Assembly: GCA_036521995.1 (NCBI GenBank)
Contig: DATDGR010000233.1
Location: forward strand, 2,342 to 66,341
Origin: Terriglobia bacterium
GTDB lineage: Bacteria > Acidobacteriota > Terriglobia > UBA7540
Direction of reading: 5' to 3'
Length of the DNA: 64,000 nt
In this document: positions 811 to 59,122 of the stretch, one piece after another
How positions within the stretch are numbered: position 1 is the first letter of the stretch
How the letters are laid out: the number at the start of each line of letters is the position of its first letter
Program-made: the position numbers and the translations under genes
Notes under the pieces: model-generated
What the model saw: only the letters and a program-made list of their open reading frames with translations
What the model was told of the DNA's origin: nothing
Databases searched by the model: none

Positions 811-1038
811 GTCGACCGCGGTCAAAACTGCGGCATTGTGCATTCGTCCCAAGAGCTGGTAACCCGTAGCGACGACACGGTTTGTGTGCCGTGGGCGTTT
901 CGTCCCGTGAACCAAAAGAACCACGACACTGAGAAGCGTGTCGTGGCTACCATCTCTGGTTGCGATTGAATCGGCCGCGAAGACAGGCCCAGGGCGACAA
1001 GCGCGTTCGCCGTGGCTACCACCGCCGTTGCCTACCGA

Positions 1039-2491
1039 TTATGGCCTTACCTGAAAGGGCGCGTTGCCCGACAGCGTGCCGCTGGGCGTTACTACCTGAA
1101 CCGTGCCGCTCGTGGCGCCAGCGGGTACGGTGGTCGAGATTAAGGAACTCGAAAGCACATTGAAAACTGCCGCCGTGCCGTTGAAGCTCACGCTGGTCGC
1201 GCCTGTCAGATTAGTCCCCTCAATGTTCACAACCGCTCCAACGTCGCCGGAGGTAGGCCGAGTTTCCACAAACGGGCCCAGACCCACCGACAACCTGAAG
1301 ACAATACCCCAGTTGTAGGCGCCACCCTGAAACGTTGTCCCGTATAAGGCGCCATTGGTGTCCTGGACCAGCGCCGCTTGGGGGGTGACCCCGTCCGGGC
1401 ACCCGCTTTGAGCACAAAAGCTGTGAAGTGTCGTCAGCGCGCCGCTTGCGGTGATTTTGAAGACCGTCCCACCGCTCCCACCAGTCGTTGTCCCGTAGAA
1501 GTTCCCGTCGGTGGCCTGGATCAGCGCCGCTTGCGGGTACGCACCGTCCGTGCAGCCGCTTTGCGAGCAAAAGCTGTACAGTGTGGTCAGGGCGCCACCT
1601 GAGGTGATCTTGAAGACGGTGCCAGTGCCGGTGCCGTTGGCCCCTCCCGAGAACGTTGTACCGTAGAAGTTATCGTCGGTAGCTTGCACCAACGGGGCGA
1701 AGGGGTAGGACCCGTCCGCGCAACCGCTCTGCGAGCAAAAGCTGTAAAGGGTTGTCAGCGCGCCGCTCGGCGTCATCTTGAAGATGGTCCCAGCGCTGTT
1801 GGTCCCACCCTGGTACGCCGTCCCGTAAAAGTTCCCATCGGCGGCCTGGACCAGCCCCGCGTTGGGGTATGCGCCGTCAGTACAACCACTTTGCGAACAA
1901 AAGGTGTGGAGCGTGGTCAGGATGCCGCTCGGGGTGATTTTGAAAATCGTGCCATCGCCGTTGGCGCCGCCGGCGATCGTGGTCCCATAGAGGTCCCCAT
2001 TGCTGGTCAAAACCAGCGCGGATTGGGGGCGTTCGCCGTCTGCGCAATCACTTTCGGAGCAAGAGCTATAAAGAGTCGTCAGCGTCGCCCGCGCGCCACT
2101 CAGCGTGTACGTGATCTTGAAGACCGTGCCTTCGCCGTAAGCTCCCCCCCTGAGACGTTGTCCCGTATAGGGTCCCGTCAGTGCTCTGGACTAGCCCGGC
2201 GCCGGGGTACTCGCCGTCGGTGCAGCCGCTCTTCGAGCAAAAGTTGTAAGCCGTCGTTAGCGTACCGCTCGGGGTGATTTGGAACACCGTTCCGCCCACG
2301 TGAGGCCCGCCCTCGAGAGTTGTCCCAAACAAATCCCCAGCGATGGAGCGAGGCGGAGGCGAAGCCTGGAAAAGAGCCGCGGCGGGCTCGGCACCGTCCG
2401 TGTAGTCGAAGCTGTGCAGTATAGTGAAAATCTGCGCCTGGGCCGGTACGGCGGACGCCGCCAGCATCATCAAGATCGCGAAAACCGCCAA
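1039..2491 (-). pseudogene. GloVer (Gloeo_Verruco) tandem-repeat secreted protein with C-terminal IPT/TIG domain, broken by a 1-nt frameshift (possibly a sequencing artefact)
   Basis: ORFs 2066..2491 (signal peptide MAVFAILMMLAASAVPAQA) and 1039..2010 carry the same ~50-aa repeat (LYSFCSQSGCTDGAYP.A.L.QA.DGNFYGTT..GG..G.GTVFKIT). Removing one base from the C7 run at 2144..2150 reads YGTTSQGG-AYGEGTVFKITYTLSG straight into the lower ORF. Confidence 0.75.
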
Positions 2492-2620
2492 TACCGCCCA
2501 TCCCCTATTCCTCGCCTGCTTGCCATCAAATCCCCCTTCAATTTCGTGGCGGCGATTATGGACCGGTTTGAGCCAGGAAGGTAAGTTCCATAACCTGATG
2601 ATACGGCATCAGTAAGCCGG

Positions 2621-2817
2621 CTCAGGTTCGTTTTGGGTTCGTTTCGGGTTCGTTTTTTCGGCATCCCGAGGGCCTCACTGATTCTAAATGACTTACTGCG
2701 CAGGCCATCGTCAAAGCTCGGGTTCGTTTAGGTTCGTTCTAGGTTCGTTTTTGCGCCGTTTTATTGATTCTAAACAGCTTCTCGGGTTCGTTTTTGCAAT
2801 TTTTTGACCGGGGGGGG
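2621..2817 (-). repeat. composite intergenic element, copy 1: phased GGTTCGTTT units (3+3+1), two TAGAATCA boxes, terminal CCG8 tract
   Basis: GGTTCGTTT starts at 2625, 2636, 2647, 2721, 2742 and 2785, with an 8/9 copy at 2731. GATTCTAAA lies at 2680 and 2766. The G8 run is 2810..2817. Order and spacing are collinear with the element at 53131..53437. Confidence 0.85.
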
Positions 2818-2832
2818 TCCCCTCAAGACCCC

Positions 2833-3327
2833 TTATGGGAACCTATCTGGCCCGGCTCGATCTACCGTTCCTTCAATCACCATCCGTGTGCCCTCATTGG
2901 GCTCGGGAGCCCTCAGTCCAACAATCTCGGCAATCCGGTTGTAAACCGCCAGTGCGTCCATGGGCTGGCCGGAGGCGAGCGCAGCCTGGGCGGCTTTGGT
3001 GGCCTCCGCCACCTCGCGCAGCCTCCCCTCCCGCTCCTCGAGGTCCAGGATGACGTGGCGGCTCCCGGCCTCGGCACCGACCTTCGGGTTCTGCTCGCGA
3101 ACGGATTGATAGCGCTGGCGCTCCTCGTCCAAAGTCATCTCGGCTTCCTGGTTGTGGGGCTCCGGCTGCAGGTGCGAAAGCCCGGCGAGCAGGAGGGCCT
3201 GAAGCATCTCGCCGGCTTCGGAGCCGGGGTCGTCCCGCGCGTCCCGGATCAGTTCATCCCTCTTCTGCCGCAGCGTCTTCAAAGGCTCCATGGCTTCGTC
3301 ACCCCCGTCCGGCGATGGTTCGATCAC
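2833..3327 (-). CDS. hypothetical protein (charged, probably coiled-coil)
   Basis: 164-aa ORF with third-codon positions dominated by G/C, unlike the overlapping + strand ORF 2764..3486. GTG start. No recognisable domain. Confidence 0.5.
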   Translation of the reverse strand: MIEPSPDGGDEAMEPLKTLRQKRDELIRDARDDPGSEAGEMLQALLLAGLSHLQPEPHNQEAEMTLDEERQRYQSVREQNPKVGAEAGSRHVILDLEEREGRLREVAEATKAAQAALASGQPMDALAVYNRIAEIVGLRAPEPNEGTRMVIEGTVDRAGPDRFP

Positions 3328-3414
3328 CCCGGGACGGCCAGGGAGAGCCGTCAGGCGCCGGCCTCCCGGACAGGCGGACCATCGAAGAATCGATCTAGCC
3401 GAGTTAGCATGACC

Positions 3415-3443
3415 AGCCTAGCACTGGAGCAGAGCCTAGTCAA
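3415..3443 (-). promoter_or_regulatory. candidate sigma70-type promoter (TTGACT-17-TAGGCT) upstream of hypothetical gene 2833..3327
   Basis: On the minus strand, TTGACT (3443..3438), a 17-nt spacer, then TAGGCT (3420..3415). Confidence 0.3.
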
Positions 3444-3521
3444 GCGGGATATTTTGAACGACAGGCTTGATTATACGGGAGACTAAGCTAGTTGTTGTAG
3501 CCTACACTAGAATCAATTATG

Positions 3522-3548
3522 ATCTATCACTAGCAGAATGTGATAGAT
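3522..3548. promoter_or_regulatory. perfect 9-bp inverted repeat ATCTATCAC-N9-GTGATAGAT in a divergent intergenic region
   Basis: Arms at 3522..3530 and 3540..3548. It lies immediately downstream of a TAGAATCAA box (3508..3516). Confidence 0.35.
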
Positions 3549-3700
3549 ATGACTGGTACGGGTCGCGCAAATTGACTCCTGGGAAGGGTCTGCGGTGAAA
3601 AAACTGGGTCTATCTCGCACAAACCGGGGAGGTTACGTGGCGGTGCGGGGTGGCGCGGCAGGCCGACCCAGGGCTCGCGGACCGGGCTCGCGAAGGGCGC

Positions 3701-3730
3701 TTGACACCCCCGCCAACTGTGGCCTACCAT
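3701..3730 (+). promoter_or_regulatory. candidate sigma70-type promoter TTGACA-18-TACCAT
   Basis: TTGACA at 3701..3706 and TACCAT at 3725..3730. The ATG of the downstream ORF is only 10 nt past the -10 box. Confidence 0.4.
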
Positions 3731-3740
3731 CAACGCAGAG

Positions 3741-24405: not shown

Positions 24406-25815
24406 TCATACCTCGCTCTTTGACTCTGGTTCCGGCTCAACCACGAGTTTCAAGCCCTCGACCTCGCGGACGCGGACCCTGCCGCCGATTGCCACCGGCT
24501 GCGCCGAACGGGCTTCCCAGATCTCGCCGCGGATCAGTATCTTGCCCTCGGGCGCGAGGTCCGTTCGGGCCACGCCCACCTGGTTGATCATACCTTGTTC
24601 ACCGGTAATTGTTTTGGCTCGCCGCGCGATCATCGCCAGGCGAAGCAGAATCACGCTGATCACGGCCACGGGAATGGTCACGCTCAGGGCCGTCCCCAGG
24701 CTGATGGCGGCGCCCGGCAGCGGTGACTGGACCAGGATGAGCGCCCCCACCACCATGGCGACGATGCCGCCCGCCGCCAGCACCCCGTGCGAGTTCGCCT
24801 TGACCTCCAGCCCGAACAGAACCAGCGCCAGCAGAATCAGGGCCACCCCGGTGAAGTTGATGGGTAGAAGGTGGAAGGCATACAGCGCCAGGACCATGGC
24901 CAGCGCGCCGGCTGCACCGGGCACCACCATGCCGGGATGGGTAAACTCGACGTAGAGACACAGAGCGCCGATCGCACCGAGAATAAAGGCGATGTTGGGG
25001 TCGGCAATGCGCGCCAGAAAGCGTTCGCGGGTGCTCATGCTGAAAGGTTGCAGGCTCGCACCCGCGAGATGGAGCACGGTCGAGCCGCCTTCAAAGCGAG
25101 CAATGGTGCGCCCGTCGAGCGAGTTGAGCAGATCCTGCGGCGAGTTGGCCACCAAGTCGATCAGGTGGTTGTCGAGCGCTTCCTTCTCTGTGAAGGAGCG
25201 GCTCTGCCGCACGCCCTCCTCCGCCAATTGCGCGTTGCGGCCCCGCTTGCCGGCGATGGAGCGAATGTAGGCGGCGGCGTCATTCTCGATCTTGGTCTCC
25301 ATCGTCTTGCCGATGTCGGCATTCCCCATCATCACCGGATGAGCGGCGCCGGTATTGGTTCCAGGGGCCATGGCGGCCACGTCGCCCGAGAGCAGGATAA
25401 AGAAGCCGGCGGAGGCGGCGCGGCTGCCGCTCGGGGCCACGTAGGTGATCACCGGCACGCGCGAACTGATGATGGCGCGGATGATGTCGCGCATGGAAGT
25501 GTCGAGGCCTCCGGGGGTGCTCAGTTCCAGCATGATGGCGGCGGCGCTCTGCTCATTGGCGGTGCGGATGCCATTTTCGACGTATTCGGCCGTGACAGGC
25601 TCAACGATGTCATCAAGATCGATTTCGACGATTCCGGGCGGACCCGCCGGTCGACCGGGAGCCGCCGGGGCCTTAACAGGACGCGAGGTCGAAGCCAGGA
25701 TCGCGAGACCTGTCAGCAGGGGGCCCAAGCCGATGCGCCACCCGGGCCGGCGCTGGTCCGAATGCCGATATTTCGGCAGCCATCTCGTGATCCTTCTGCT
25801 CAGCCCTCGAGACAT
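24406..25815 (-). CDS. NfeD-family membrane-bound serine protease (ClpP-class domain + TM + C-terminal OB fold)
   Basis: ClpP-like block LELSTPGGL...AASAGFFIL, four TM helices and an OB-fold tail (ILIRGEIWEARS). It forms the canonical pair with the downstream stomatin gene. I prefer the start at MSRGLS. Confidence 0.85.
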   Translation of the reverse strand: MSRGLSRRITRWLPKYRHSDQRRPGWRIGLGPLLTGLAILASTSRPVKAPAAPGRPAGPPGIVEIDLDDIVEPVTAEYVENGIRTANEQSAAAIMLELSTPGGLDTSMRDIIRAIISSRVPVITYVAPSGSRAASAGFFILLSGDVAAMAPGTNTGAAHPVMMGNADIGKTMETKIENDAAAYIRSIAGKRGRNAQLAEEGVRQSRSFTEKEALDNHLIDLVANSPQDLLNSLDGRTIARFEGGSTVLHLAGASLQPFSMSTRERFLARIADPNIAFILGAIGALCLYVEFTHPGMVVPGAAGALAMVLALYAFHLLPINFTGVALILLALVLFGLEVKANSHGVLAAGGIVAMVVGALILVQSPLPGAAISLGTALSVTIPVAVISVILLRLAMIARRAKTITGEQGMINQVGVARTDLAPEGKILIRGEIWEARSAQPVAIGGRVRVREVEGLKLVVEPEPESKSEV

Positions 25816-25859
25816 TTTTATAAGCTTAAGCCCTTCAACAACATCGTGGCTTCGTTCGT
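25808..25859 (-). repeat. 52-bp leader repeat, proximal copy (contains the nfeD ATG)
   Basis: Minus strand: ACGAACGAAGCCACGATGTTGTTGAAGGGCTTAAGCTTATAAAAATGTCTCG. Confidence 0.85.
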
Positions 25860-25962
25860 TAGAGCCGGAGCCTGGGTTCATGGACCAGGGCTGCGGAATT
25901 GGCTTCGCGGCGGTCGCGATCGGCGGCGCGCTCAGCTTGCACGCGGCACCTGCCCGAAGGTG

Positions 25963-26014
25963 CGAGACATTTTATTAACCCTCATCCCTTCAATAACATC
26001 GTGGCTTCGTTCGT
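25963..26014 (-). repeat. 52-bp leader repeat, distal copy (heads a 12-codon mini-ORF MSRTFGQVPRAS)
   Basis: Minus strand: ACGAACGAAGCCACGATGTTATTGAAGGGATGAGGGTTAATAAAATGTCTCG. It is about 85% identical to the proximal copy, 155 bp away, and lies 15 nt after the TPR gene stop. Confidence 0.85.
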
Positions 26015-41255: not shown

Positions 41256-41500
41256 GTCTCCGAAGTTCGTCCAAGAATTCAGCTCCGAAGGAGCGACATA
41301 ACGTAGCCCACGGCGTAAGCCGTGGGTCGGGGCACCGCGCCATCCCTCTCCCTCTCCCGCCCGCGCGGGAGAGGGATGCCGAAGGCGGGGTGAGGGCCGA
41401 TTCATCCCAGGGCTCACGCCCTGGGCTACGTCATGTCGCCCCTAACGGGGCTTGCCGGAGCTTCTCTGAGAGCCAGACTTCATCTACGAACTTCTGAGAC
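41256..41500. repeat. MITE-like / REP-like palindromic element with long imperfect terminal inverted repeats
   Basis: Termini GTCTCcGAAGTTCGT (41256..41270) and ACGAACTTCtGAGAC (41486..41500). Each arm carries GCGACATnACGTAGCCCAnGGCGTnAGCCnTGGG with an 8-bp hairpin (41307..41326 and 41406..41425). A central 11-bp perfect stem CATCCCTCTCC/GGAGAGGGATG lies at 41341..41378. Confidence 0.6.
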
Positions 41501-44258: not shown

Positions 44259-44480
44259 ATGATCAACAGCCGAATGGACGCGGGACCATTTGAGATTGAT
44301 GCCATGCTCACCCAACTGCTGAAGACGCTCTGGCACTTCCTCCGCGAGGTCAGCGGAGAGAATGATTACCCTCGTTACCGGGATCGAGCCCTTGCCCGCG
44401 GCGAATCGCCGCTCTCGCCGGTTCGTTTCTACCTTTCCCGGCTGGAGCATAAATACTCGCGGCCGAATCGCTGCTGCTGA
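44259..44480 (+). CDS. YbdD/YjiX family (DUF466) CstA-associated small protein
   Basis: 73 aa. The ATG abuts the cstA TGA. Contains GENDYPRY and the C-terminal RPNRCC. Confidence 0.8.
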   Translation: MINSRMDAGPFEIDAMLTQLLKTLWHFLREVSGENDYPRYRDRALARGESPLSPVRFYLSRLEHKYSRPNRCC

Positions 44481-51602: not shown

Positions 51603-51812
51603 TGTGCTGACGGCTAAAGGCCGATAGCTGACACCTTCTTCAGTCACGCGACCGCTTTTTCCGCGTCTAAGATGCATGCGAGCGAGGATTGCATCCGTAC
51701 GCGCCGGTTCGTCGAGCGGCACGCTTGGTGGCTCACGGCGAATTCGCGGCGCAAAAGCGGTATATTGGAGAGAGAGCAGTGCGGGCAATTTCGTTGAGTG
51801 GCAGAAGGGGAA

Positions 51813-52988
51813 ATGATGGCTACCTCCCGAAACTTGAGTCACGGAATTGAGCCGCCCCGTTGGCGCGGAGTCCTCCTTTGGACTGCCCTTGGCGGCCTGG
51901 CGTTGTCCCTGTTCGCGCTCACGAGTTGTTCGAGCGGCGGCGCGCAGGGTGATCCCGCCCAGGCGATGAAAATGATGATGATGCAGGCCGTGCCGGTGAC
52001 GCTGGCACAGGCTCGACTGAAGACGGTCCCAGTGCAGATTCAAGTGGTCGGCAACGGGGAGGCGTACAACACCGTCAACGTCAAGGCGCAAGTGGACGGC
52101 TTGCTGGAGCGAGCCTATTTTCAGCAGGGCCAGGACGTGCGCGAGGGCGATCTGCTCTTCACCATCGACGCCCGGCCGTTCCAGGCCGCCCTCGATCAGG
52201 CCGAGGCGAACCTGGCCCGCGACCAGGTCCAACTCAAGAACGCACAGGACCAGTACGAGCGCAACGCGGCTCTGTTCAAGGAAGGCATCGTGTCGAAGGA
52301 CCAATACCAGACCTTCCGCACCACGGCTGCGGCCGGTGACGCCACGGTGAAGGCCGACGAGGCGGCTATCGAGAACGCCCGGATTCAGCTTGGATACTGC
52401 ACCATCCGCTCGCCCATCAGCGGCCGCACCGGCAGCCTGCTGGTCCAGGTGGGCAACCTGGTAAAGAACAACGACGCGGCTTTGGTTACGATCAACCAGA
52501 TCACGCCCCTCTACGTCGATTTCTCCGTCCCAGAGCAGTATTTTGCCGAGATCAAGCGGCACCAGGCCGCCGGTCCGCTGAAGGTGGAAGCGATGGTGCC
52601 GCAGGATCAGAGCCACCCCGAATGGGGACAGCTTTCTTTCATCAACAACATGGTGGACACCACGACAGGCACCGTGCTGATGAAGGGCGCCTTCCCCAAT
52701 CCGGCCCGACGGCTCTGGCCCGGCCAGTTTGTCAACGTGGTTGTGACTCTCGATTCGCTGCGGGACGCCGTGGTGGTCCCTAGCCAGGCCGTTCAAACGG
52801 GGCAGCAGGGCAAGTACATCTTCGTGGTGAAAGAAGACAAATCGGTGGAGATACGCCCCGTGACGCCCGGCGTGAGCGACGGCCCTGATACGGTGATCGA
52901 GAAAGGCATCGCCGCGGGCGAGACGGTGGTAACCGACGGCCAGTTGCGGCTGTTCCCCGGAGCCCATGTAGAAGCCAAAAGCCTCTGA
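51813..52988 (+). CDS. efflux RND-type periplasmic adaptor subunit (membrane fusion protein, lipoprotein)
   Basis: Lipobox-like ALTSCSS, lipoyl/hairpin/beta-barrel order, and YCTIRSPISGRTG. It is AcrA/MexA-like. Confidence 0.85.
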   Translation: MMATSRNLSHGIEPPRWRGVLLWTALGGLALSLFALTSCSSGGAQGDPAQAMKMMMMQAVPVTLAQARLKTVPVQIQVVGNGEAYNTVNVKAQVDGLLERAYFQQGQDVREGDLLFTIDARPFQAALDQAEANLARDQVQLKNAQDQYERNAALFKEGIVSKDQYQTFRTTAAAGDATVKADEAAIENARIQLGYCTIRSPISGRTGSLLVQVGNLVKNNDAALVTINQITPLYVDFSVPEQYFAEIKRHQAAGPLKVEAMVPQDQSHPEWGQLSFINNMVDTTTGTVLMKGAFPNPARRLWPGQFVNVVVTLDSLRDAVVVPSQAVQTGQQGKYIFVVKEDKSVEIRPVTPGVSDGPDTVIEKGIAAGETVVTDGQLRLFPGAHVEAKSL

Positions 52989-53130
52989 ACTACAGTGTGA
53001 TGACAACCAGAGCGACAGTGCGCTGAGAGGTTTTCCGCAACCTCAATTACTCTGCCCACTCTGCCTTCGCTGGGATAATCATATTATTATCAATAATCTG
53101 CGCCGGTTTGGCTGACTGGCGCCTTTCTCG

Positions 53131-53437
53131 GGTTCATTTTGGGTTCGTTTCGGGTTCGTTTAGGTTCGTCCTGGTTCAAGTTCACAAGCCTCTGCTGATT
53201 CTGAAGGAGTTGCCGAATTAGACCGCATCAAATCTTAGGTTCGTTTAGGTTCGTTTTGCTTTCGTCTCTCGGGGTCGTTCTTGATCCTTAAACGTTCTGA
53301 AATCGGTCGCTTACCGGTTTGGGTTAGTTTAAAAACAATCTTGGCTGTTTTTCGCCATGTTTCCTGCTAAGCTTAATGTCTAAAAACAGTTACATGTTTG
53401 GGATCTAAAGGCATACATCATATCCCCCCGGGGGGGG
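53131..53437 (-). repeat. composite intergenic element, copy 2: phased GGTTCGTTT units, TCAGAATCA box, C6G8 tract
   Basis: Perfect GGTTCGTTT at 53142, 53153, 53238 and 53248. Near copies at 53131, 53163, 53173, 53271 and 53322. GATTCTGAA at 53197. C6G8 at 53424..53437. Confidence 0.85.
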
Positions 53438-53535
53438 CCTTGACCTTCCAGACTGGGTGTCGCCGGCGCCCCTGTTCCTGCGGGGGTGGCCACCAGCCCT
53501 TCCGGCGTGACAGCAGGACTCTTCACGAGAGACAT
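53380..53535 (-). CDS. candidate 51-codon ORF (MSLVKSPAVTPEGLVATPAGTGAPATPSLEGQGPPRGDMMYAFRSQTCNCF)
   Basis: Good SD (GGGGAGGTTGGTA-ATG) and a promoter 80 nt upstream. Third-position G/C is only moderate (29 of 51 by my count), and the C8/G6 tract lies inside it. Confidence 0.2.
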   Translation of the reverse strand: MSLVKSPAVTPEGLVATPAGTGAPATPSLEGQGPPRGDMMYAFRSQTCNCF

Positions 53536-53614
53536 TACCAACCTCCCCGGCTTCCCGGGCTCACAAGAACCCATCGCGGACCTGGCCGCGAGCGCGATTA
53601 CTCAACTCGCATCT

Positions 53615-53642
53615 GCCATATCATAATTTTTGGGCTTGTCAA
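53615..53642 (-). promoter_or_regulatory. candidate sigma70-type promoter TTGACA-16-TATGGC reading into repeat copy 2
   Basis: On the minus strand, TTGACA (53642..53637), a 16-nt spacer, then TATGGC (53620..53615), followed by aGATG-N5-TGAGTAATC as at 45781..45799. Confidence 0.45.
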
Positions 53643-53668
53643 GCTGAATGCTGGGGCCCGAATTCCGC

Positions 53669-53706
53669 AAAAAAAAGGCGGGCGCTCGCCGAAGCGAACA
53701 CCCGCC
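53669..53706 (-). terminator. intrinsic terminator of the TonB-dependent receptor gene
   Basis: Minus strand: GGCGGGTG-ttcgcttcggcgag-CGCCCGCC followed by T8 (A8 at 53669..53676 on the + strand), about 35 nt after the stop. Confidence 0.7.
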
Positions 53707-53739
53707 ACGGAGGGATTGGCTCGATGAGTGGAGCTGCTC

Positions 53740-56700
53740 CTAGAAGTAAACCTTCAGCGCAAACTGAATGATGCGCGCGCCCGTAGGGTTGAACGCGTTG
53801 GCTTGCTGCACGCTCGTGGTATCTGCGAAGGCCGCGTTATTAGCCTCGCAGCAAGTTCCATTGATACCGCCGAAGTCGTGAATATTGAAGGCGTTGAAGA
53901 ATTCCGCCCGGAACTGCACGGACCGCTTGCCTTCACTAAATGGGAAGTTCTTGAACAGGCCTAGGTCGACGTTGTTGAAGTGGGGGCCGACCTGAGCGTA
54001 GCGCCCTAAAGTTCCAAACTGATACCCGCCGGAAGGAAGGACGCAAGAGCCACCGGAGCAATTCTCCGGGAGCGAATAGGCATTAACGTTCAGGATCCGG
54101 ATGCCGTTGTTGGGGTTGGTGGGATCATTGGTGAAAGTGGACATCGTCGTAGGACCACCCACGTAGTTGGGGCGCTGGCTGTTGCCACGCTGACCCGCGT
54201 TGGCCAAGTCGCTCGGCACACCGATATTGATCGGAAATCCGCTGTTGTAATGGTAGATTCCTGTGAACTCCCAGCCGCCGAGCAAGAGGTCCTCCGCCCG
54301 GTTGAAGTTGGATCCCCAGCGGCGGCCGTGGCCGAAGGGAAGATCTTCGAGCCACTGCGCGGTGAAAATCTGGGCGTAGTTGTTGGCGCTGTTTCCGTAG
54401 TCACAGTAGCGGCACAGGTCGTTCTCCGGCGACGTACCGCCGTAGTTGTCGCCGCTGGGCGTATCGAGCAAGTGCGACCAGGTGTAGGTCACCAGGGCCT
54501 GTGTGCCGCTGGAGAATCTCTTATCCAGCTTCACCTGGAGTCCGTTGTAATTTGATACCGCGTTGTTGGCGTTCTCGCTCAACGAAGTAAGGGTGGGGGC
54601 ATAGGGAAACGACGGCCGCGTCTTCACCGTTCCTGCGGCTATGGCTTGCGTGGTGCAGACCGTCGGGCCCGCGTCGGGGCAAATTTGGAGCGGACCCGGC
54701 GGGGGGTCATTCGCGTTAAAGAACCCGCCGAGATTCTTGGCGTTGTTACCCACGTAGTTGACTTCGAGCATGAGGTTGCGGGCCAGCTGTTGTTGAATAC
54801 CCAGATTCCACTGTCGTGTATAGGGAGTCCGGTTGTTGAGAGCTTGGACGTGCTCCTCACTGGGCGGCGTGCCCGGCTGCGGGAAGTCATAAGGGGGGAA
54901 GAACGTAGCCAGCGGCAGGGTGGGTTGCAGCGTGTTCACGCTGTTGATGCTCTGCGAGATGGCGTAGGGCCATTGGCCTCGGGCTCCTTGCCCCGCCCAG
55001 GCGTAGTCGCCGTTGTAAAAGTACCCGAAGCCCCCCCGGAGCACCGTGTTGGGGCGCAACTGATAGGCAAATCCGACACGCGGAGCCCAGTTCCGGTAGT
55101 CCGGATTCATGAGCGAGCGCGGGGCATTGGCCGGCTGGCCGGTGACAGGGTTCGGCCCGGCCCATGCCAACATATGCTGATCAACATAATAGTTGCCCAG
55201 GTGATTGTACTTATCGAAGGGCCACTGGTTGTATTCCCAACGCAGGCCCATATTCACGGTTAACTTGGTGGTGGGCTTGTAGTTATCCTGAATGTAGAGG
55301 CCTGGCGTGTTCTGGTGGAAGTAGGCCGCGGTATCGCCAACGTTGCGGAGTCCGCTGCTCGGCAGGCCCAGCAGGTAGGAAGCAACTTCATTGATGTTGC
55401 TGCCCGTCGAGGTCAGAGGATCCTGGGTGGGAACCTGATCGAAATTGAACTGCGAGGTGAACGTGCCGTCGTAATAGGCGTTGTAGTGCTCGTACTCGGC
55501 GCCCGTCTTGATCTCGTGCTTGCCCCGCTCCATGGTTATGTTCAGCAGCTCTTGCCATACATTGGTGATAAATGGGTTGCCGCTGGTGCTCGGGTTGGTG
55601 TAATAGGAGCCAAAGTTGAACGCCGGAAACAGCGGAGTGGTCGTGCTCTTGATAGGCGTTCCCTGAATGGGATAGGTCGAAAGAAACGACGCCACGCCAG
55701 GCGCGGGATCGTTGGAGAAGTTGGTGAGGTTGGCGCGATTGTAACCCGACTTGAAGTCTATAATCGTGGTAGGGCTCTTGACCCAGGTGGCGCTGGCGAC
55801 CGCGTTCACGAACTGATTGTACAGGTAATAGTAATTCACCGGCAGACCCTGGGGGCTCGGGTTTACGGCGTGCTGGTCACTCACACGAAAGTAGGAATTG
55901 ACCTTGCTGCCGAAGGAGTGATCGATGCGCCCGCTCAACTGGTACTGGTTGATCGTATTCGGATTGGAGTTGAAAGAGTTGGGCGAGCTGAGGCCGCTGG
56001 TCGAGGGGTACCAAATTCCAGCATAGGCCGCCGTGATGGGACTGACCATGCCTGAGGGAATCGTGTTTCCCGGGAACGGATCTCGCACGTTTCCTGTGGT
56101 CTGCGCCACCAAACCGGTGGTTGGATCCACCTGGCCGGCCGTCACCGAGCGAGTGGTGTAGGGATTGTAGACTTCATTCGCATCGACCGGGCGGCCGAGG
56201 GCGTCAACACACGCCGAATTCTTGTTGACGCCGCACGTCATCAACTGAGAACCCAGGTTACTCGCGAAGTTTCCGCTCAACTCCGTTGCAGTTGGGGCAG
56301 TGGCGGTATTCAGACTGTTCGAGGCGAATCTGAGGCCTTCATAGCTGAAGAACCAGAAGGTCTTGTCCTTCCCATTGTAAAGGTGTGGGAAGTAAACGGG
56401 ACCTCCCGCCACAACGCCAAATTGATTCTGCCGGTAAGCTCCCAGCGGCGCGTTGAAGAAGTTGTTGAACCACGCATTCGCGTCCAGGTCGTTGTTGCGC
56501 AAAAACTCCCAGGCAGCGCCATGAAATTGGTTCGTGCCGGACTTGGTGGCCACGGCGATGGCGGCTCCCGCCGCCCGCCCATACTCGGCCGAGGTGATGT
56601 TGGTTTCGACCTTGAACTCCTGGATGGAGTCGATGGGGGGCTGCATGGCGTACTGCCCGAAGAACTCTTCATTGTTGTAAATTCCGTCCAACTGGAACAT

Positions 56701-57294
56701 GTTGGAGCCGGAGCGGTTGCCGCTGATCTGGTAATTGGACCCGCTGATCTGGAAACTGTTGCCAGTGGATACGCTGCCGGGGACCAACTCGAGCAATTGA
56801 GTGAAGCTCCTGCCGTTCAGCGGCATTTCCGTGACCGTCTGGTTGCCGATCTGGGTTCCCACGGTGGCGTTCGTGGTCTGAAGCACGGGGGCCTTGGCCT
56901 CAACCGTAACCTGTTGCGTCACTTGGCCGACCTGCAGCGCCACGTTGACGGTGGTGTCGGTGCCGATGTCGACCTTGACGTTGTCGACCACCGAGGTCTG
57001 AAAGCCGGAAATCTCCGTCTTCACGCTGTAGATACCCGGGACGAGGTTCCCGACGTGGTAGGCACCGATCTCGTTAGCGATGGCCGTAAGAGCGGTCGTC
57101 GTGCCGGTATTGGTTACCGTTACCTGAGCCTTCGGGATGCTGGCTCCAGACACATCAGTAACCGTTCCGGCGATCCCGCCATAGTAGACTTGTGCTAGGC
57201 CCACCGTTGACGCGGCCAGCAGCAAGGCTACTGCCATCAGGGCACCAAGGCCCAGCCGGCGGCTATTTACCTTATTGCCTTCAGTCTTTTGCAT
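53740..57294 (-). CDS. TonB-dependent receptor-like outer-membrane protein with carboxypeptidase-regulatory-like N-domain
   Basis: Signal peptide, IAGTVTDVSGASIPKAQVTVTN..T......ANEIGAYHVGNLVPGIYSVKTEISGF, a long barrel, and the terminal ...FALKVYF. The start at MQKTEG has the SD GGGGAG. Confidence 0.85.
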   Translation of the reverse strand: MQKTEGNKVNSRRLGLGALMAVALLLAASTVGLAQVYYGGIAGTVTDVSGASIPKAQVTVTNTGTTTALTAIANEIGAYHVGNLVPGIYSVKTEISGFQTSVVDNVKVDIGTDTTVNVALQVGQVTQQVTVEAKAPVLQTTNATVGTQIGNQTVTEMPLNGRSFTQLLELVPGSVSTGNSFQISGSNYQISGNRSGSNMFQLDGIYNNEEFFGQYAMQPPIDSIQEFKVETNITSAEYGRAAGAAIAVATKSGTNQFHGAAWEFLRNNDLDANAWFNNFFNAPLGAYRQNQFGVVAGGPVYFPHLYNGKDKTFWFFSYEGLRFASNSLNTATAPTATELSGNFASNLGSQLMTCGVNKNSACVDALGRPVDANEVYNPYTTRSVTAGQVDPTTGLVAQTTGNVRDPFPGNTIPSGMVSPITAAYAGIWYPSTSGLSSPNSFNSNPNTINQYQLSGRIDHSFGSKVNSYFRVSDQHAVNPSPQGLPVNYYYLYNQFVNAVASATWVKSPTTIIDFKSGYNRANLTNFSNDPAPGVASFLSTYPIQGTPIKSTTTPLFPAFNFGSYYTNPSTSGNPFITNVWQELLNITMERGKHEIKTGAEYEHYNAYYDGTFTSQFNFDQVPTQDPLTSTGSNINEVASYLLGLPSSGLRNVGDTAAYFHQNTPGLYIQDNYKPTTKLTVNMGLRWEYNQWPFDKYNHLGNYYVDQHMLAWAGPNPVTGQPANAPRSLMNPDYRNWAPRVGFAYQLRPNTVLRGGFGYFYNGDYAWAGQGARGQWPYAISQSINSVNTLQPTLPLATFFPPYDFPQPGTPPSEEHVQALNNRTPYTRQWNLGIQQQLARNLMLEVNYVGNNAKNLGGFFNANDPPPGPLQICPDAGPTVCTTQAIAAGTVKTRPSFPYAPTLTSLSENANNAVSNYNGLQVKLDKRFSSGTQALVTYTWSHLLDTPSGDNYGGTSPENDLCRYCDYGNSANNYAQIFTAQWLEDLPFGHGRRWGSNFNRAEDLLLGGWEFTGIYHYNSGFPINIGVPSDLANAGQRGNSQRPNYVGGPTTMSTFTNDPTNPNNGIRILNVNAYSLPENCSGGSCVLPSGGYQFGTLGRYAQVGPHFNNVDLGLFKNFPFSEGKRSVQFRAEFFNAFNIHDFGGINGTCCEANNAAFADTTSVQQANAFNPTGARIIQFALKVYF

Positions 57295-57538
57295 TTGGAA
57301 ACTCCCCTGGGCGATTTGAAGATCTCCGACACCCGTTTCCTGCGGACGCAAATTGAGAGGCCAGTAGTCAGAACACACTAGAACGACAACTATTACCTAT
57401 GAGCCCCAATTGAAAAAAGCGTAAGTGACATGGAGTAACTTGCGGTTAAATCGAGGGCCCAACGGCGTCAATTCCACGTACACGCCTCGGCTCATTGAAC
57501 TTAGCACGGACAATGTCTTGGCCAAGAGTGGTCGATTG

Positions 57539-59093: not shown

Positions 59094-59122
59094 TTGACTG
59101 GCTAACCTCTAAACCCTAGAAT
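59094..59122 (+). promoter_or_regulatory. candidate sigma70-type promoter TTGACT-17-TAGAAT (the -10 box is part of a TAGAATCAA box)
   Basis: TTGACT at 59094..59099 and TAGAAT at 59117..59122. The PBP1A start codons lie 15-21 nt downstream. Confidence 0.5.

Follow-up and report, generated by a model that had tools for sequence, protein, structure and literature searches.

What kind of element is the block of short direct repeats at positions 2621-2817 of a 64,000-nt stretch of a Terriglobia MAG (the window), and on what does it act? The initial annotation had described seven copies of GGTTCGTTT, phased by the helical turn around promoter-like hexamers, and had compared them with iterons, partition centromeres and response-regulator arrays. 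All coordinates were checked directly on the sequence. The block is a single member of a large and apparently undescribed family: conserved non-coding cassettes that precede unrelated housekeeping genes in soil Acidobacteria.

Anatomy of the block and of related loci in the window

The six exact copies of GGTTCGTTT, the 8/9 unit, the helical-turn spacing and the CCG8 end were all recovered as described (Table 1). The boxes, with GATTCTAAA at 2680 and 2766, read TTTAGAATCA on the minus strand, and their promoter-like appearance amid phase-locked direct repeats was confirmed. On that strand the units of array 1 read AAACGAACC, and 12 nt separate the final unit from the box B hexamer downstream of it. 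The element end is 16 nt past the stop of the upstream minus-strand ORF. An upstream array of three units, as in array 1, is also present in the subtype-I copies L128, L129, L131 and L158. The block is a composite of direct repeats and boxes and, as already stated in the annotation, not a CRISPR array. The gene downstream of copy 1 on the minus strand (left side) starts at 2491 and codes for a secreted GloVer-repeat protein; the other genes around the copy code for a 164-aa protein without family match, an efflux adaptor and a TonB-type outer-membrane protein. Inspection of these genes agreed with the absence of an adjacent DNA-binding partner gene.

Exact GGTTCGTTT occurs 11 times in the window, with 0.31 expected (none of 100 shuffles reached 11), and all but one of the occurrences are within two blocks, 2621-2817 and 53131-53437. 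The single occurrence outside both arrays had been noticed before, but its position is 44420 and not 44418. TAGAATCA was counted eight times, with 0.57 expected.

Table 1. Positions of the repeat units, boxes and ends of the two copies and of a third related locus in the window.
Feature	Positions	Strand	Sequence and remarks
Copy 1, array 1	2625..2660	-	three GGTTCGTTT units (2625, 2636, 2647; spacing 11, 11), T-run at end
Copy 1, box A	2678..2696	-	GTAAGTCATTTAGAATCAG; -10-like hexamer TAGAAT is the complement of 2681-2686
Copy 1, array 2	2721..2752	-	units 2721, 2731 (GGTTCGTTC, 8/9), 2742; spacing 10, 11; then T-run
Copy 1, box B	2764..2784	-	plus TTGATTCTAAACAGCTTCTCG, minus CGAGAAGCTGTTTAGAATCAA; TAGAAT is the complement of 2767-2772
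Copy 1, final single unit	2785..2799	-	GGTTCGTTTTT (exact GGTTCGTTT at 2785), then GCAA; 43 bp past last array unit
Copy 1, element end	2808..2822		CC-G8-TCCCC (CC 2808-2809, G8 2810-2817), G-run / C-G palindrome
Copy 2, whole	53131-53437	-	units 53131 (8/9), 53142, 53153, 53163 (7/9), 53238, 53248
Copy 2, first array	53131..53181	-	GGTTCATTT, GGTTCGTTT x2, GGTTCGTCC, GGTTCAAGT; spacing 11, 11, 10, 10
Copy 2, box A-like	53195..53214	-	CTGATTCTGAAGGAGTTGCC (minus strand ..TTCAGAATCAG)
Copy 2, second array	53238..53330	-	units 53238, 53248; degenerate units 53273, 53322
Copy 2, decayed box B	53281-53299	-	TTGATCCTTAAACGTTCTG
Copy 2, palindrome	53424..53437		C6G8 after GGCATAC
Third related locus, degenerate	25808..26014	-	two 52-nt modules: 25808-25859, 25963-26014

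Copy 2 aligns with copy 1 across arrays and boxes and is the more decayed of the two. Its GGCATAC and palindrome are as in subtype II, but about 95 nt farther from the last unit. Because it lies between convergent genes, it has no downstream minus-strand gene; that the decayed copy is the one without a minus-strand target gene was counted in favour of the cassette reading developed below. The third locus sits between two minus-strand genes and resembles a second acidobacterial subtype (L009, L079). Each of its modules has a box (minus strand GATGTTGTTGAAGG and GATGTTATTGAAGG, respectively) adjoining one GCTTCGTTCGT unit.

Distribution and conservation of the family

In pattern scans, the same composite element was found at many non-orthologous intergenic sites of Terriglobia, with nine copies in the single MAG DATJYK01. 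A pattern of three GGTTCGT units matched at least 115 loci, and a box-plus-unit pattern matched 46 further stretches in soil metagenomes, three of them on one 372-kb contig. The search for further copies that the annotation had proposed thus gave intergenic copies with the phasing of 10-11 bp kept. Related arrays are also present in other Acidobacteriota, in Planctomycetota and in Verrucomicrobiota, and the motif 'unit + TTTTGCA' is common to the Terriglobia element and the planctomycete and verrucomicrobial arrays. Subtype I ends with a G-run and subtype II with GGCATACCCCCCGGGGGGGTGCC. Genome-scan matches in Ferrovibrio, Streptomyces, Segatella, cyanobacteria and others were discarded as unrelated tandem repeats merely containing GGTTCGT.

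The element had not been recognised as a described one, and the searches gave the same answer. Rfam 15 returned nothing at gathering threshold for both window copies (best E-values 2-10 at a permissive threshold) and nothing for 15 related loci; Acido-Lenti-1 and a tRNA were the only matches, both away from the element. A tRNA/tmRNA scan gave no match. Full-text literature searches for the 8- and 9-mers, alone or with taxon names, yielded primer sequences only, and nothing relevant came up when repeats or promoter motifs of these phyla were searched for by keyword.

Over 16 four-unit copies, the units have a pairwise identity of 0.99, box B 0.90 and box A 0.72. The most variable spacer, from box A to the array, has 0.49, and the flanks have 0.30, equal to background. 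The array pattern 10-11 or 11-10-11 is found in about 28 of 29 aligned copies (exceptions are 10-10 and 11-10-12). The final unit follows the last array unit by 43 bp in all 29, and box B is 24 nt from the last array unit in all 29 as well, a distance not fixed by the search anchor. The distance between box A and the start unit of array 2 is always 41 nt. The box B hexamer TAGAAT and its 12-nt distance to the final unit were identical in 43 of 43 copies; this count is not independent, as most of the stretch is fixed by the search anchor. The long distances recurring across the 29 copies are 43 and, in the subtype of the window, 74/75. Conservation of units and spacing beside flanks at background identity indicates selection and not a recent repeat burst. 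The family would be a clean case of non-coding repeats that selection on motif and spacing, and not recent mobility, has preserved.

A selfish or neutral dispersed repeat (a MITE-, REP- or BOX-like mosaic) without function, whose boxes and orientation would be by-products of tolerated insertion sites, is unlikely. The many copies at non-orthologous sites and the modular build, with unit and module numbers varying between copies, are what it would predict, and the array is the target of a mobile intron, as REP elements are of insertion sequences. L025, from another genome, resembles copy 1 more closely (82.7% over 202 nt) than copy 2 of the same genome does, and both window copies are in regions unlike those of close relatives, the closest relatives of both flanking regions being rearranged. 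On the other side, no terminal inverted repeats were seen, the two ends of the element (box A side and palindrome) differ in the alignments, none of the genes within 3.5 kb of 75 loci is a recurring transposase, no copies were found on plasmids or phages, and the orientation toward the downstream gene is strongly biased. Within-genome copies have 99% identical units and exact spacer lengths, yet a 49% identical spacer and flanks only about 30% identical, which speaks for purifying selection and not for recent transposition.

With E. coli BIME/REP, pneumococcal BOX and Neisseria Correia elements, the family shares multiple intergenic copies and a modular build with variable module numbers; some of those elements carry promoters or terminators and serve other mobile elements as insertion targets. 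REP units are palindromic, and Correia elements have terminal inverted repeats and target duplications, whereas the units of this family are directly repeated along a helical lattice, its copies are old, with divergence outside the motifs, and its related forms are found in several phyla. REP/BIME was rejected as identity, since the unit GGTTCGTTT is non-palindromic and occurs as direct repeats.

Strand of action and promoter-like boxes

In 28 of 35 copies (p = 5e-4) the left-hand gene is on the minus strand and so points away from the element, and the right-hand gene of the same set has no strand bias. Gene orientation, the TAGAAT/TATAAT boxes, upstream promoters in related subtypes and the orientation of an intron are evidence that points to the minus strand as the functional strand. 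Genes downstream of the copies include ackA, scpA, folP, mnmG, dnaJ, zwf, xseA, rnpA and glnA; as they are unrelated, the cassette is general-purpose and not bound to one operon.

The minus-strand frequency matrix of the box A hexamer from 41 copies is T36 A34 G30 A40 A39 T38. Position 3 is the most variable, as in sigma-70 -10 elements, and the A at position 2 and the T at position 6 are those of such an element. Beyond the hexamer, AAG at -20 to -18 and CAG at -6 to -4 are conserved; this exceeds the need of a plain -10 element and counts against a simple promoter reading. Neither box has a -35 hexamer at a distance of 16-18 bp, a search for two-hexamer promoters gave no match in 2300-3000 and none in 52900-53800, and the frequency matrix has no conserved TTG at -35. 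A sigma-54 promoter at the last unit was rejected, as its GG-to-GC spacing is 1-2 bp short by manual count, and so was an IHF site in the box, which on inspection lacks the TTR part of the consensus. Of the other TAGAATCA sites in the window, six in number, five are upstream of plus-strand genes, and the site at 59117 carries TTGACT-17-TAGAAT.

Related subtypes have their promoters elsewhere. In the second acidobacterial subtype, TTGACA-N17-TGnTAGTCT is upstream of the arrays in nine of nine copies, the arrays follow this canonical promoter by 60-260 nt, and the homologous box AAGTTGTTGAAAACA is not -10-like. This layout of box, promoter and arrays fits a transcribed-leader role better than an operator role. 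Subtype I has TTGACA-17-TATACT-like promoters upstream in six of seven copies, and subtype II has -10-like boxes inside the element.

An RNA-level element is the main alternative to the cassette reading developed below, and a possibility of some weight: the cassette would be a minus-strand 5' leader (a small RNA in Planctomycetota) and its unstructured A/C-rich repeats would act in the transcript. They could offer an RNA-binding protein a platform of many sites, or form an idealised Rho-loading (rut) site in which CC dimers recur every 10-11 nt. All acidobacterial subtypes have the means for minus-strand transcription across the arrays, and the orientation toward the downstream gene (28 of 35) also agrees. 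At least seven copies carry a group II intron within the array, inserted in minus-strand sense. In Pirellulales, three units are followed by inverted units, which fold to a hairpin with a U-run on the minus-strand RNA, and five of eight inverted units have a T variant that gives G-U pairs there, although the plus strand of these loci folds no worse than the minus strand. No conserved RNA fold was found with RNAalifold in 29 copies (-3.5 kcal/mol on the plus strand, 0.0 on the minus strand, covariance term about 0); a minus-strand consensus without predicted secondary structure is as expected of a single-stranded platform. The minus-strand transcript would also resemble rut sites in being C-rich, G-poor and unstructured, but Rho loading needs neither a conserved, strict 9-mer nor spacer lengths on a 10.6-nt lattice. 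Furthermore, one unit is always upstream of box B, hence outside a transcript begun at box B, and the unit fits no known RNA-binding protein motif (GGA, ARN, CA-motif).

The box matches the gamma-proteobacterial boxA consensus GYTCTTTAANA (PMC5725501) at nine of 11 positions. Position 4 of this consensus is C, and a C4T/T6C double mutation at E. coli suhB boxA abolished Nus-factor recruitment. An rrn-type boxA (NusB/NusE site) was rejected: box B is GTTnTTTAGAA, with C at position 4 in only four of 43 copies and G at position 9.

Likeness to known systems and proposed mode of action

With direct repeats of about 11 bp clustered to either side of promoter-like boxes, the block recalls plasmid R1 parC. 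There, contiguous repeats of this kind flank a promoter core and are bound cooperatively by a small repressor, with one dimer on each helical turn. The block of the window has 3 + 3 + 1 units and two -10-like boxes, parC 5+5 units. The likeness is of anatomy only, and the suggested iteron array or parC-type partition centromere was rejected as next to impossible because copy number and context contradict it. parC is a single plasmid site beside its own parMR genes, whereas the present element is chromosomal, lies near housekeeping and mutually unrelated genes, and reaches nine copies in one MAG. Beside copy 1, parR/parM or equivalents are absent, no neighbour family recurs within 3.5 kb of 75 loci, and no rep gene was found nearby. 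BLASTN gave no match among 72,556 plasmids and none with phages, and a pattern scan of viral contigs gave unrelated tandem repeats only. A transposon end or an operator of one conserved gene was also rejected, as the only neighbour clusters at the 75 loci are spurious ORFs running through the repeat.

A response-regulator-type binding array would fit the anatomy. Operators of OmpR/PhoB type (pho boxes, ompF/ompC F and C sites) have head-to-tail repeats with a period of 10-11 bp, each unit with about 6-7 specific bases and about four A/T, and three to six units are upstream of, or overlap, a promoter without a -35 element. The present units are GGTTCG followed by TTT(T)N, repeated head to tail every 10 or 11 bp. 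The difference is that OmpR/PhoB operators belong to coherent regulons and their flanks evolve per promoter, whereas here the whole 170-200-bp cassette, spacers included, is conserved at unrelated genes. The functional diversity of the downstream genes argues against a narrow regulon.

The reading preferred here, tentatively, is a portable promoter/leader cassette whose phased repeats would dock a putative DNA-binding protein. The element, which is conserved, dispersed and non-coding in Terriglobia, would act in cis on the left-hand gene and be read on the minus strand. Along that strand come a palindrome rich in C/G or a C-run, a single unit, a box of -10 type (TAGAAT), an array of three or four units at 10-11 bp and a second box; the subtype of the window has three more units before the gene. 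The boxes, together with the canonical upstream promoter in related subtypes, would start or carry transcription toward the left-hand gene; the conservation profile of the boxes is -10-like. Units on both sides of the boxes would share one 10.6-bp lattice and presumably dock a sequence-specific protein binding head-to-tail on successive helical turns, more probably on DNA than on the transcript, and the docked protein would set promoter output. Candidate types are winged-helix OmpR/PhoB-like, ribbon-helix-helix ParR-like and LytTR-like proteins; no binding protein for the units was identified.

A lattice of 10.62 bp accommodates all seven units of copy 1 (R = 0.98), but long-range phasing within the copy is only marginal, because 5.4% of trials that randomise only the two long gaps do equally well. 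The relatives in planctomycetes and Verrucomicrobiota have long spacers of 90 and 100 bp that break the phase, which is against the docking reading. The same periodicity could bend the DNA without a dedicated protein: phased T/A-tracts would stimulate the box promoters through the alpha subunits of RNA polymerase, in the manner of a curved UP element. T3-T6 tracts recur every 10-11 bp, both copies are in the top 1% of the window for curvature predicted from wedge parameters, and the minus-strand arrays are at about -47 to -87 from box A, which has no -35 element. This explanation is nevertheless very unlikely, as the GGTTCG part, needless for bending alone, is conserved as strictly as the T-tract (99% identity), arrays are downstream of box B too, and the curvature is not the maximum of the window, about a dozen sites being higher.

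A broader reading, speculative and rather doubtful, is that GGTTCGTTT lattices mark a so far unrecognised global cis-regulatory system of Acidobacteriota, Planctomycetota and Verrucomicrobiota, in which one putative conserved factor would read the tandem 10-11-nt units, in DNA or nascent RNA, before many housekeeping genes, with a group II intron lineage specialised in homing there. Acidobacteria and the PVC phyla are dominant in many soils and waters and hard to grow, and to our knowledge almost nothing is known of their promoters, leaders and global regulators. A cassette present many times per genome in rigid geometry, before genes such as dnaJ, rnpA, glnA, zwf and folP and with relatives in three phyla, offers a defined bait for finding the factor that reads the units and, for genetic tools in these bacteria, an expression module that is portable and ready for use. 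The arrays would also be an example of a group II intron using a non-coding repeat as homing site.

LexA and MraZ, to which there is some resemblance, fit neither copy number nor motif. The resemblance to AlgR/LytTR was retained as a possible lead: every second unit follows at 21 bp, and copy L046 is upstream of a LytTR regulator gene, possibly by chance.

Repeat blocks in the window and their neighbourhood

The 9-mer repeat unit GGTTCGTTT is present in 11 exact copies in the window against 0.31 expected, a number reached by no shuffle, and TAGAATCA in eight against 0.57 expected. Ten of the 11 exact 9-mers are confined to two blocks, copy 1 (2621-2817) and copy 2 (53131-53437). The remaining one is at 44420; the initial annotation noticed it correctly, but placed it at 44418. 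Seven units, two GATTCTAAA boxes and the CC-G8 of copy 1 were found in sequence 2200-3300 where they had been annotated (Table). Copy 2 can be aligned with copy 1 across both arrays and both boxes; more of its units have mismatches, its second box has decayed, and about 95 nt of additional sequence precede its C6G8 palindrome.

A lattice of 10.62 bp fits all seven units of copy 1 (R = 0.98), and the fit was equalled in 5.4% of trials when just its two long gaps were randomised, so long-range phasing of copy 1 by itself is marginal. Curvature predicted for copy 1 from wedge parameters ranks among the highest 1% in the window, yet below its maximum. Curvature alone as the role of the block would leave the conserved GGTTCG core unexplained, and is quite improbable.

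Table. Coordinates of features in the window and of the intron-end sequence in related contigs
Feature	Position	Strand	Remark
Exact GGTTCGTTT units, copy 1	2625, 2636, 2647, 2721, 2742, 2785		read from sequence 2200-3300
Variant unit GGTTCGTTC, copy 1	2731
Box sequence GATTCTAAA, copy 1	2680, 2766
CC-G8, copy 1 end	2808-2817
Secreted GloVer-repeat protein, left of copy 1	start 2491	-	TIGR03803, E = 8e-22 and 1e-83, two ORFs
164-aa ORF, right of copy 1	2833-3327	-	no family match; stop 16 nt from G-run
Efflux adaptor, beside copy 2	51798-52988	+
TonB-type outer-membrane protein, beside copy 2	53740-57378	-
TAGAATCA(A) sites upstream of plus-strand genes	3508, 14963, 41775, 46007, 59117	+
Sixth TAGAATCA site	31752		inside P450 gene
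Intron-end sequence	L141:1-105; contig ends of L127, L135, L136, L142, L147, L149, L161

Copy 1 is flanked on both sides by minus-strand genes. The GloVer-repeat gene (1039-2491, minus strand) has internal DNA repeats of 153-168 nt and is split into ORFs 2066-2491 and 1039-2010, which may be due to a frameshift or assembly error, or may reflect two genes. A 2.9-kb segment (811-3740) with the GloVer genes, copy 1 and the 164-aa ORF is missing from the related stretch L179 (BshA 91% identical), where a phosphoesterase gene is followed directly by a 182-aa gene and bshA. Copy 2 is located between convergent genes; of the two copies in the window, it is the one that lacks a downstream minus-strand gene and the one that has decayed. 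Relatives have an RND pump gene after the efflux adaptor gene (intact in L117, fragments in L116). The pump gene is missing in the window, where decayed copy 2 and some 300 nt of GC-rich sequence occupy the interval (52988-53740) up to the convergent outer-membrane protein gene. The genes adjoining either copy include no DNA-binding gene, as initially annotated for copy 1, and no replication or partition gene.

A family of elements with conserved geometry

The block is a member of a large family of elements. When one genome per species was scanned for three GGTTCGT units spaced 10-11 bp apart, at least 115 stretches were recognized. Many of them, from Ferrovibrio, Streptomyces, Segatella, cyanobacteria and others, are unrelated tandem repeats merely containing the heptamer. 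About half of the matches listed have features in common beyond the search pattern: T-rich GGTTCGTTT units, a T-run at the array end, a conserved box, one more unit that stands at a fixed distance and precedes TTTTGCA or a similar sequence, and a homopolymer palindrome or hairpin as the last part. Among the matches listed, such elements are carried by Terriglobia and other Acidobacteriota (eight loci with nine copies in MAG DATJYK01 alone), by Planctomycetota (Pirellulales, Sedimentisphaerales and Phycisphaerae, two MAGs having five loci each) and by Verrucomicrobiia (one MAG with three loci). A second scan, with box B and the final unit in soil metagenomes, gave 46 stretches; a 372-kb contig and a 164-kb contig have three each. 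Every related sequence comes from a contig of a MAG or metagenome. Over 202 nt, copy 1 has 82.7% identity with L025, a locus with unrelated flanks in another genome; with copy 2, from the genome of the window, it has only about 70%. From the common architecture, we infer that the acidobacterial and PVC arrays are homologous.

Terriglobia copies form two clear subtypes, II being commoner than I. In subtype II, box A is followed by 41 nt, an array of 3-4 units (spaced 10-11 or 11-10-11), 24 nt, box B, 19 nt, the final unit, about 12 nt and GGCATACCCCCCGGGGGGGTGCC. Subtype I (copy 1, L025, L128, L129, L131, L146, L158 and L162) has an additional three-unit array 74-75 bp upstream of the main array and G-runs at the element end; the 74/75-bp gap is kept in every full subtype-I copy except one. 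The last array unit is 43 bp from the final unit in all 29 aligned copies. The 10-11 bp phasing, which the initial annotation proposed to look for in related copies, is kept in other copies. Across acidobacterial copies, long gaps of 41-44 and 74/75 bp hold all units in helical register.

Among 16 four-unit copies, pairwise identity is 0.99 in the units, 0.90 in box B, 0.82 in the spacer between array and box B, 0.72 in box A, 0.49 in the spacer between box A and array, and 0.30 in the flanks. Copies on the same contig have spacers divergent throughout and spacer lengths identical to the base. Motifs and spacer lengths are thus kept while spacer sequence diverges, the pattern of purifying selection on motifs and geometry and not one that a mobile element spreading in a recent burst would leave.

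To the right of the final unit, planctomycete copies (L005, L008, L011, L047, L050, L092 and others) have a small hairpin, TGTAGAG..CTCTACA, the paired arms of which are both changed in L047 (TGTAAAG..CTTTACA). Beyond it are long low-complexity repeats common to the loci in shuffled order. Upstream in locus L041 are G-runs longer than 20 nt.

Sense strand and promoter-like boxes

Genes in the loci were called by ORF and GC3 heuristics, which are weaker at low-GC planctomycete loci. The left-hand gene is on the minus strand in 28 of 35 Terriglobia copies (p = 5e-4), while the right-hand gene has no strand bias (20 vs 16), which places the element upstream of a leftward gene with minus as the sense strand. 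At planctomycete loci, unlike in Terriglobia, the left-hand gene is mostly on the plus strand according to these weaker calls. A purely selfish repeat is at odds with both this orientation bias and the conservation pattern, and is improbable. The downstream genes are unrelated (ackA, scpA, folP, mnmG, dnaJ, zwf, xseA, rnpA, glnA, permeases, secreted proteins).

Boxes A and B both read YAAGTCnTTTAGAATCAG on the minus strand. The box A hexamer has counts T36 A34 G30 A40 A39 T38 in 41 copies, with position 3 the most variable and with variants TATAAT, CAGAAT, TAAAAT, TGAAAT, TGGAAT and TAGGAT. By this profile the boxes look like sigma-70 -10 elements, in keeping with the promoter-like hexamers first proposed on the minus strand. 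The window has six other TAGAATCA sites; five are intergenic and precede plus-strand genes, that at 59117 having the form TTGACT-17-TAGAAT. Three of these five are within a common 31-nt block, CCAARGCnGGAATnTnnTTTAGAATCAACAA (14944, 41756 and 45988), which may be a promoter or leader motif that has been propagated.

In a second acidobacterial subtype (L009, L023, L036, L060, L061, L075, L087, L099, L112), the homologous box is AAGTTGTTGAAAACA and is not -10-like. On the minus strand, TTGACA-N17-TGnTAGTCT precedes the element by 60-260 nt in all nine copies, and six of the seven other subtype-I copies have TTGACA-17-TATACT-like promoters in the equivalent place. Canonical minus-strand promoters are located 130-260 nt right of the element in L128, L146, L158, L162 and L025, followed by a conserved initial transcribed stretch, GTAGGTTACTAAnnGTATGGTTcAATcG, absent from the window.

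Two 52-nt repeats, 87% identical (25808-25859 and 25963-26014), lie between two minus-strand genes, each with a box, GATGTTGTTGAAGG on the minus strand, adjoining a single GCTTCGTTCGT unit. They seem to form a third, degenerate locus related to the element and similar to the second acidobacterial subtype. In L117 (6230-6380), three tandem boxes of the same family, CCGGAATGTTGTTGATAAT, CCGGAATGTTGATGAAAAC and CTGGAATGTTCTAGAAAAG, about 45 nt apart and without GGTTCGTTT units, are situated within the operon in the gap between adaptor and pump genes, an odd position for three promoters. Acido-Lenti-1 RNA motifs were recognized in opposite orientation at 41281-41326 (minus, 60.1 bits) and 41406-41452 (plus, 51.3 bits), with an inverted repeat of 28-nt arms between them (41333-41392) and a TAGAATCAAC box about 300 nt further; L112 has another copy about 2 kb from its element.

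Possible mode of action and likeness to known systems

Sequence comparison supports the block as a conserved cis-acting cassette that lies ahead of a gene, is read on the minus strand, and carries -10-type boxes and sequence-specific sites with number and spacing under selection. On that strand, one unit is at about -33 to -25 and 3-4 units at about +10 to +50 relative to box B; the same array units are at about -47 to -87 relative to box A. Each unit consists of a specific core of 6-7 bp and about 4 bp of A/T spacer, and units succeed each other head to tail with a period of 10-11 bp. Such a pattern is used by proteins binding successive helical turns, as OmpR/PhoB-type winged-helix, ParR-type ribbon-helix-helix and LytTR regulators, the last pairing sites 21 bp apart. 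By analogy, the units may act at DNA level, as predicted sites for such a protein; this tentative reading is favoured because units lie on both sides of the boxes, run head to tail at 10-11 bp and keep helical register across long gaps.

In the main rival reading, the repeats would work at transcript level and offer an RNA-binding protein or Rho an unstructured A/C-rich platform; it is somewhat less likely than action at DNA level. In its favour, transcription across the arrays would be ensured in every subtype, the second-subtype box is not a promoter, and Pirellulales arrays end in a hairpin and U-run on the minus strand; against it, one unit is always upstream of the box, and Rho loading needs no conserved 9-mer. 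The RNA-structure alternative named in the initial annotation found no backing, as RNAalifold of 29 copies showed neither covariation nor a conserved fold for the two strands (-3.5 and 0.0 kcal/mol).

An iteron or centromere, the initial proposal, is contradicted by copy number and context and is extremely unlikely. A search of 72,556 plasmids and 50,697 phage records gave no match, and viral contigs had only unrelated repeats. Clustering of all ORFs within 3.5 kb of 75 loci revealed no recurrent neighbour gene, which excludes both the end of a transposon that brings its transposase along and an operator specific to a single gene family. The element had no match in Rfam at gathering or permissive thresholds, and full-text literature searches returned the motif in primers only.

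In anatomy, the element is comparable to a phased operator array of parC or OmpR/PhoB type around a promoter, and in distribution to the dispersed mosaic repeats BIME, BOX and Correia, including service as a target for another mobile element. It does not belong to any of these groups; the defining features looked for (partner genes, plasmid location, palindromic units, an Rfam model) were not found, and TIRs and target duplications were judged by inspection only. The element box is identical in 9 of 11 positions to the gamma-proteobacterial boxA consensus GYTCTTTAANA (PMC5725501), but the C at position 4 is present in just 4 of 43 element copies.

At least seven soil-metagenome contigs break within one 100%-identical 105-nt sequence, which directly adjoins unit 2 of a truncated array. 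On the minus strand, this sequence is similar to the 5' part of a group II intron (Rfam group-II-D1D4-6, E = 1.4e-9), with 37.9 bits against a gathering score of 49 in a match interrupted by the contig end. A group II intron appears to home specifically into these arrays, in many copies and in sense orientation. Together with the -10-like boxes and the upstream promoters of related subtypes, this agrees with the minus-strand assignment.
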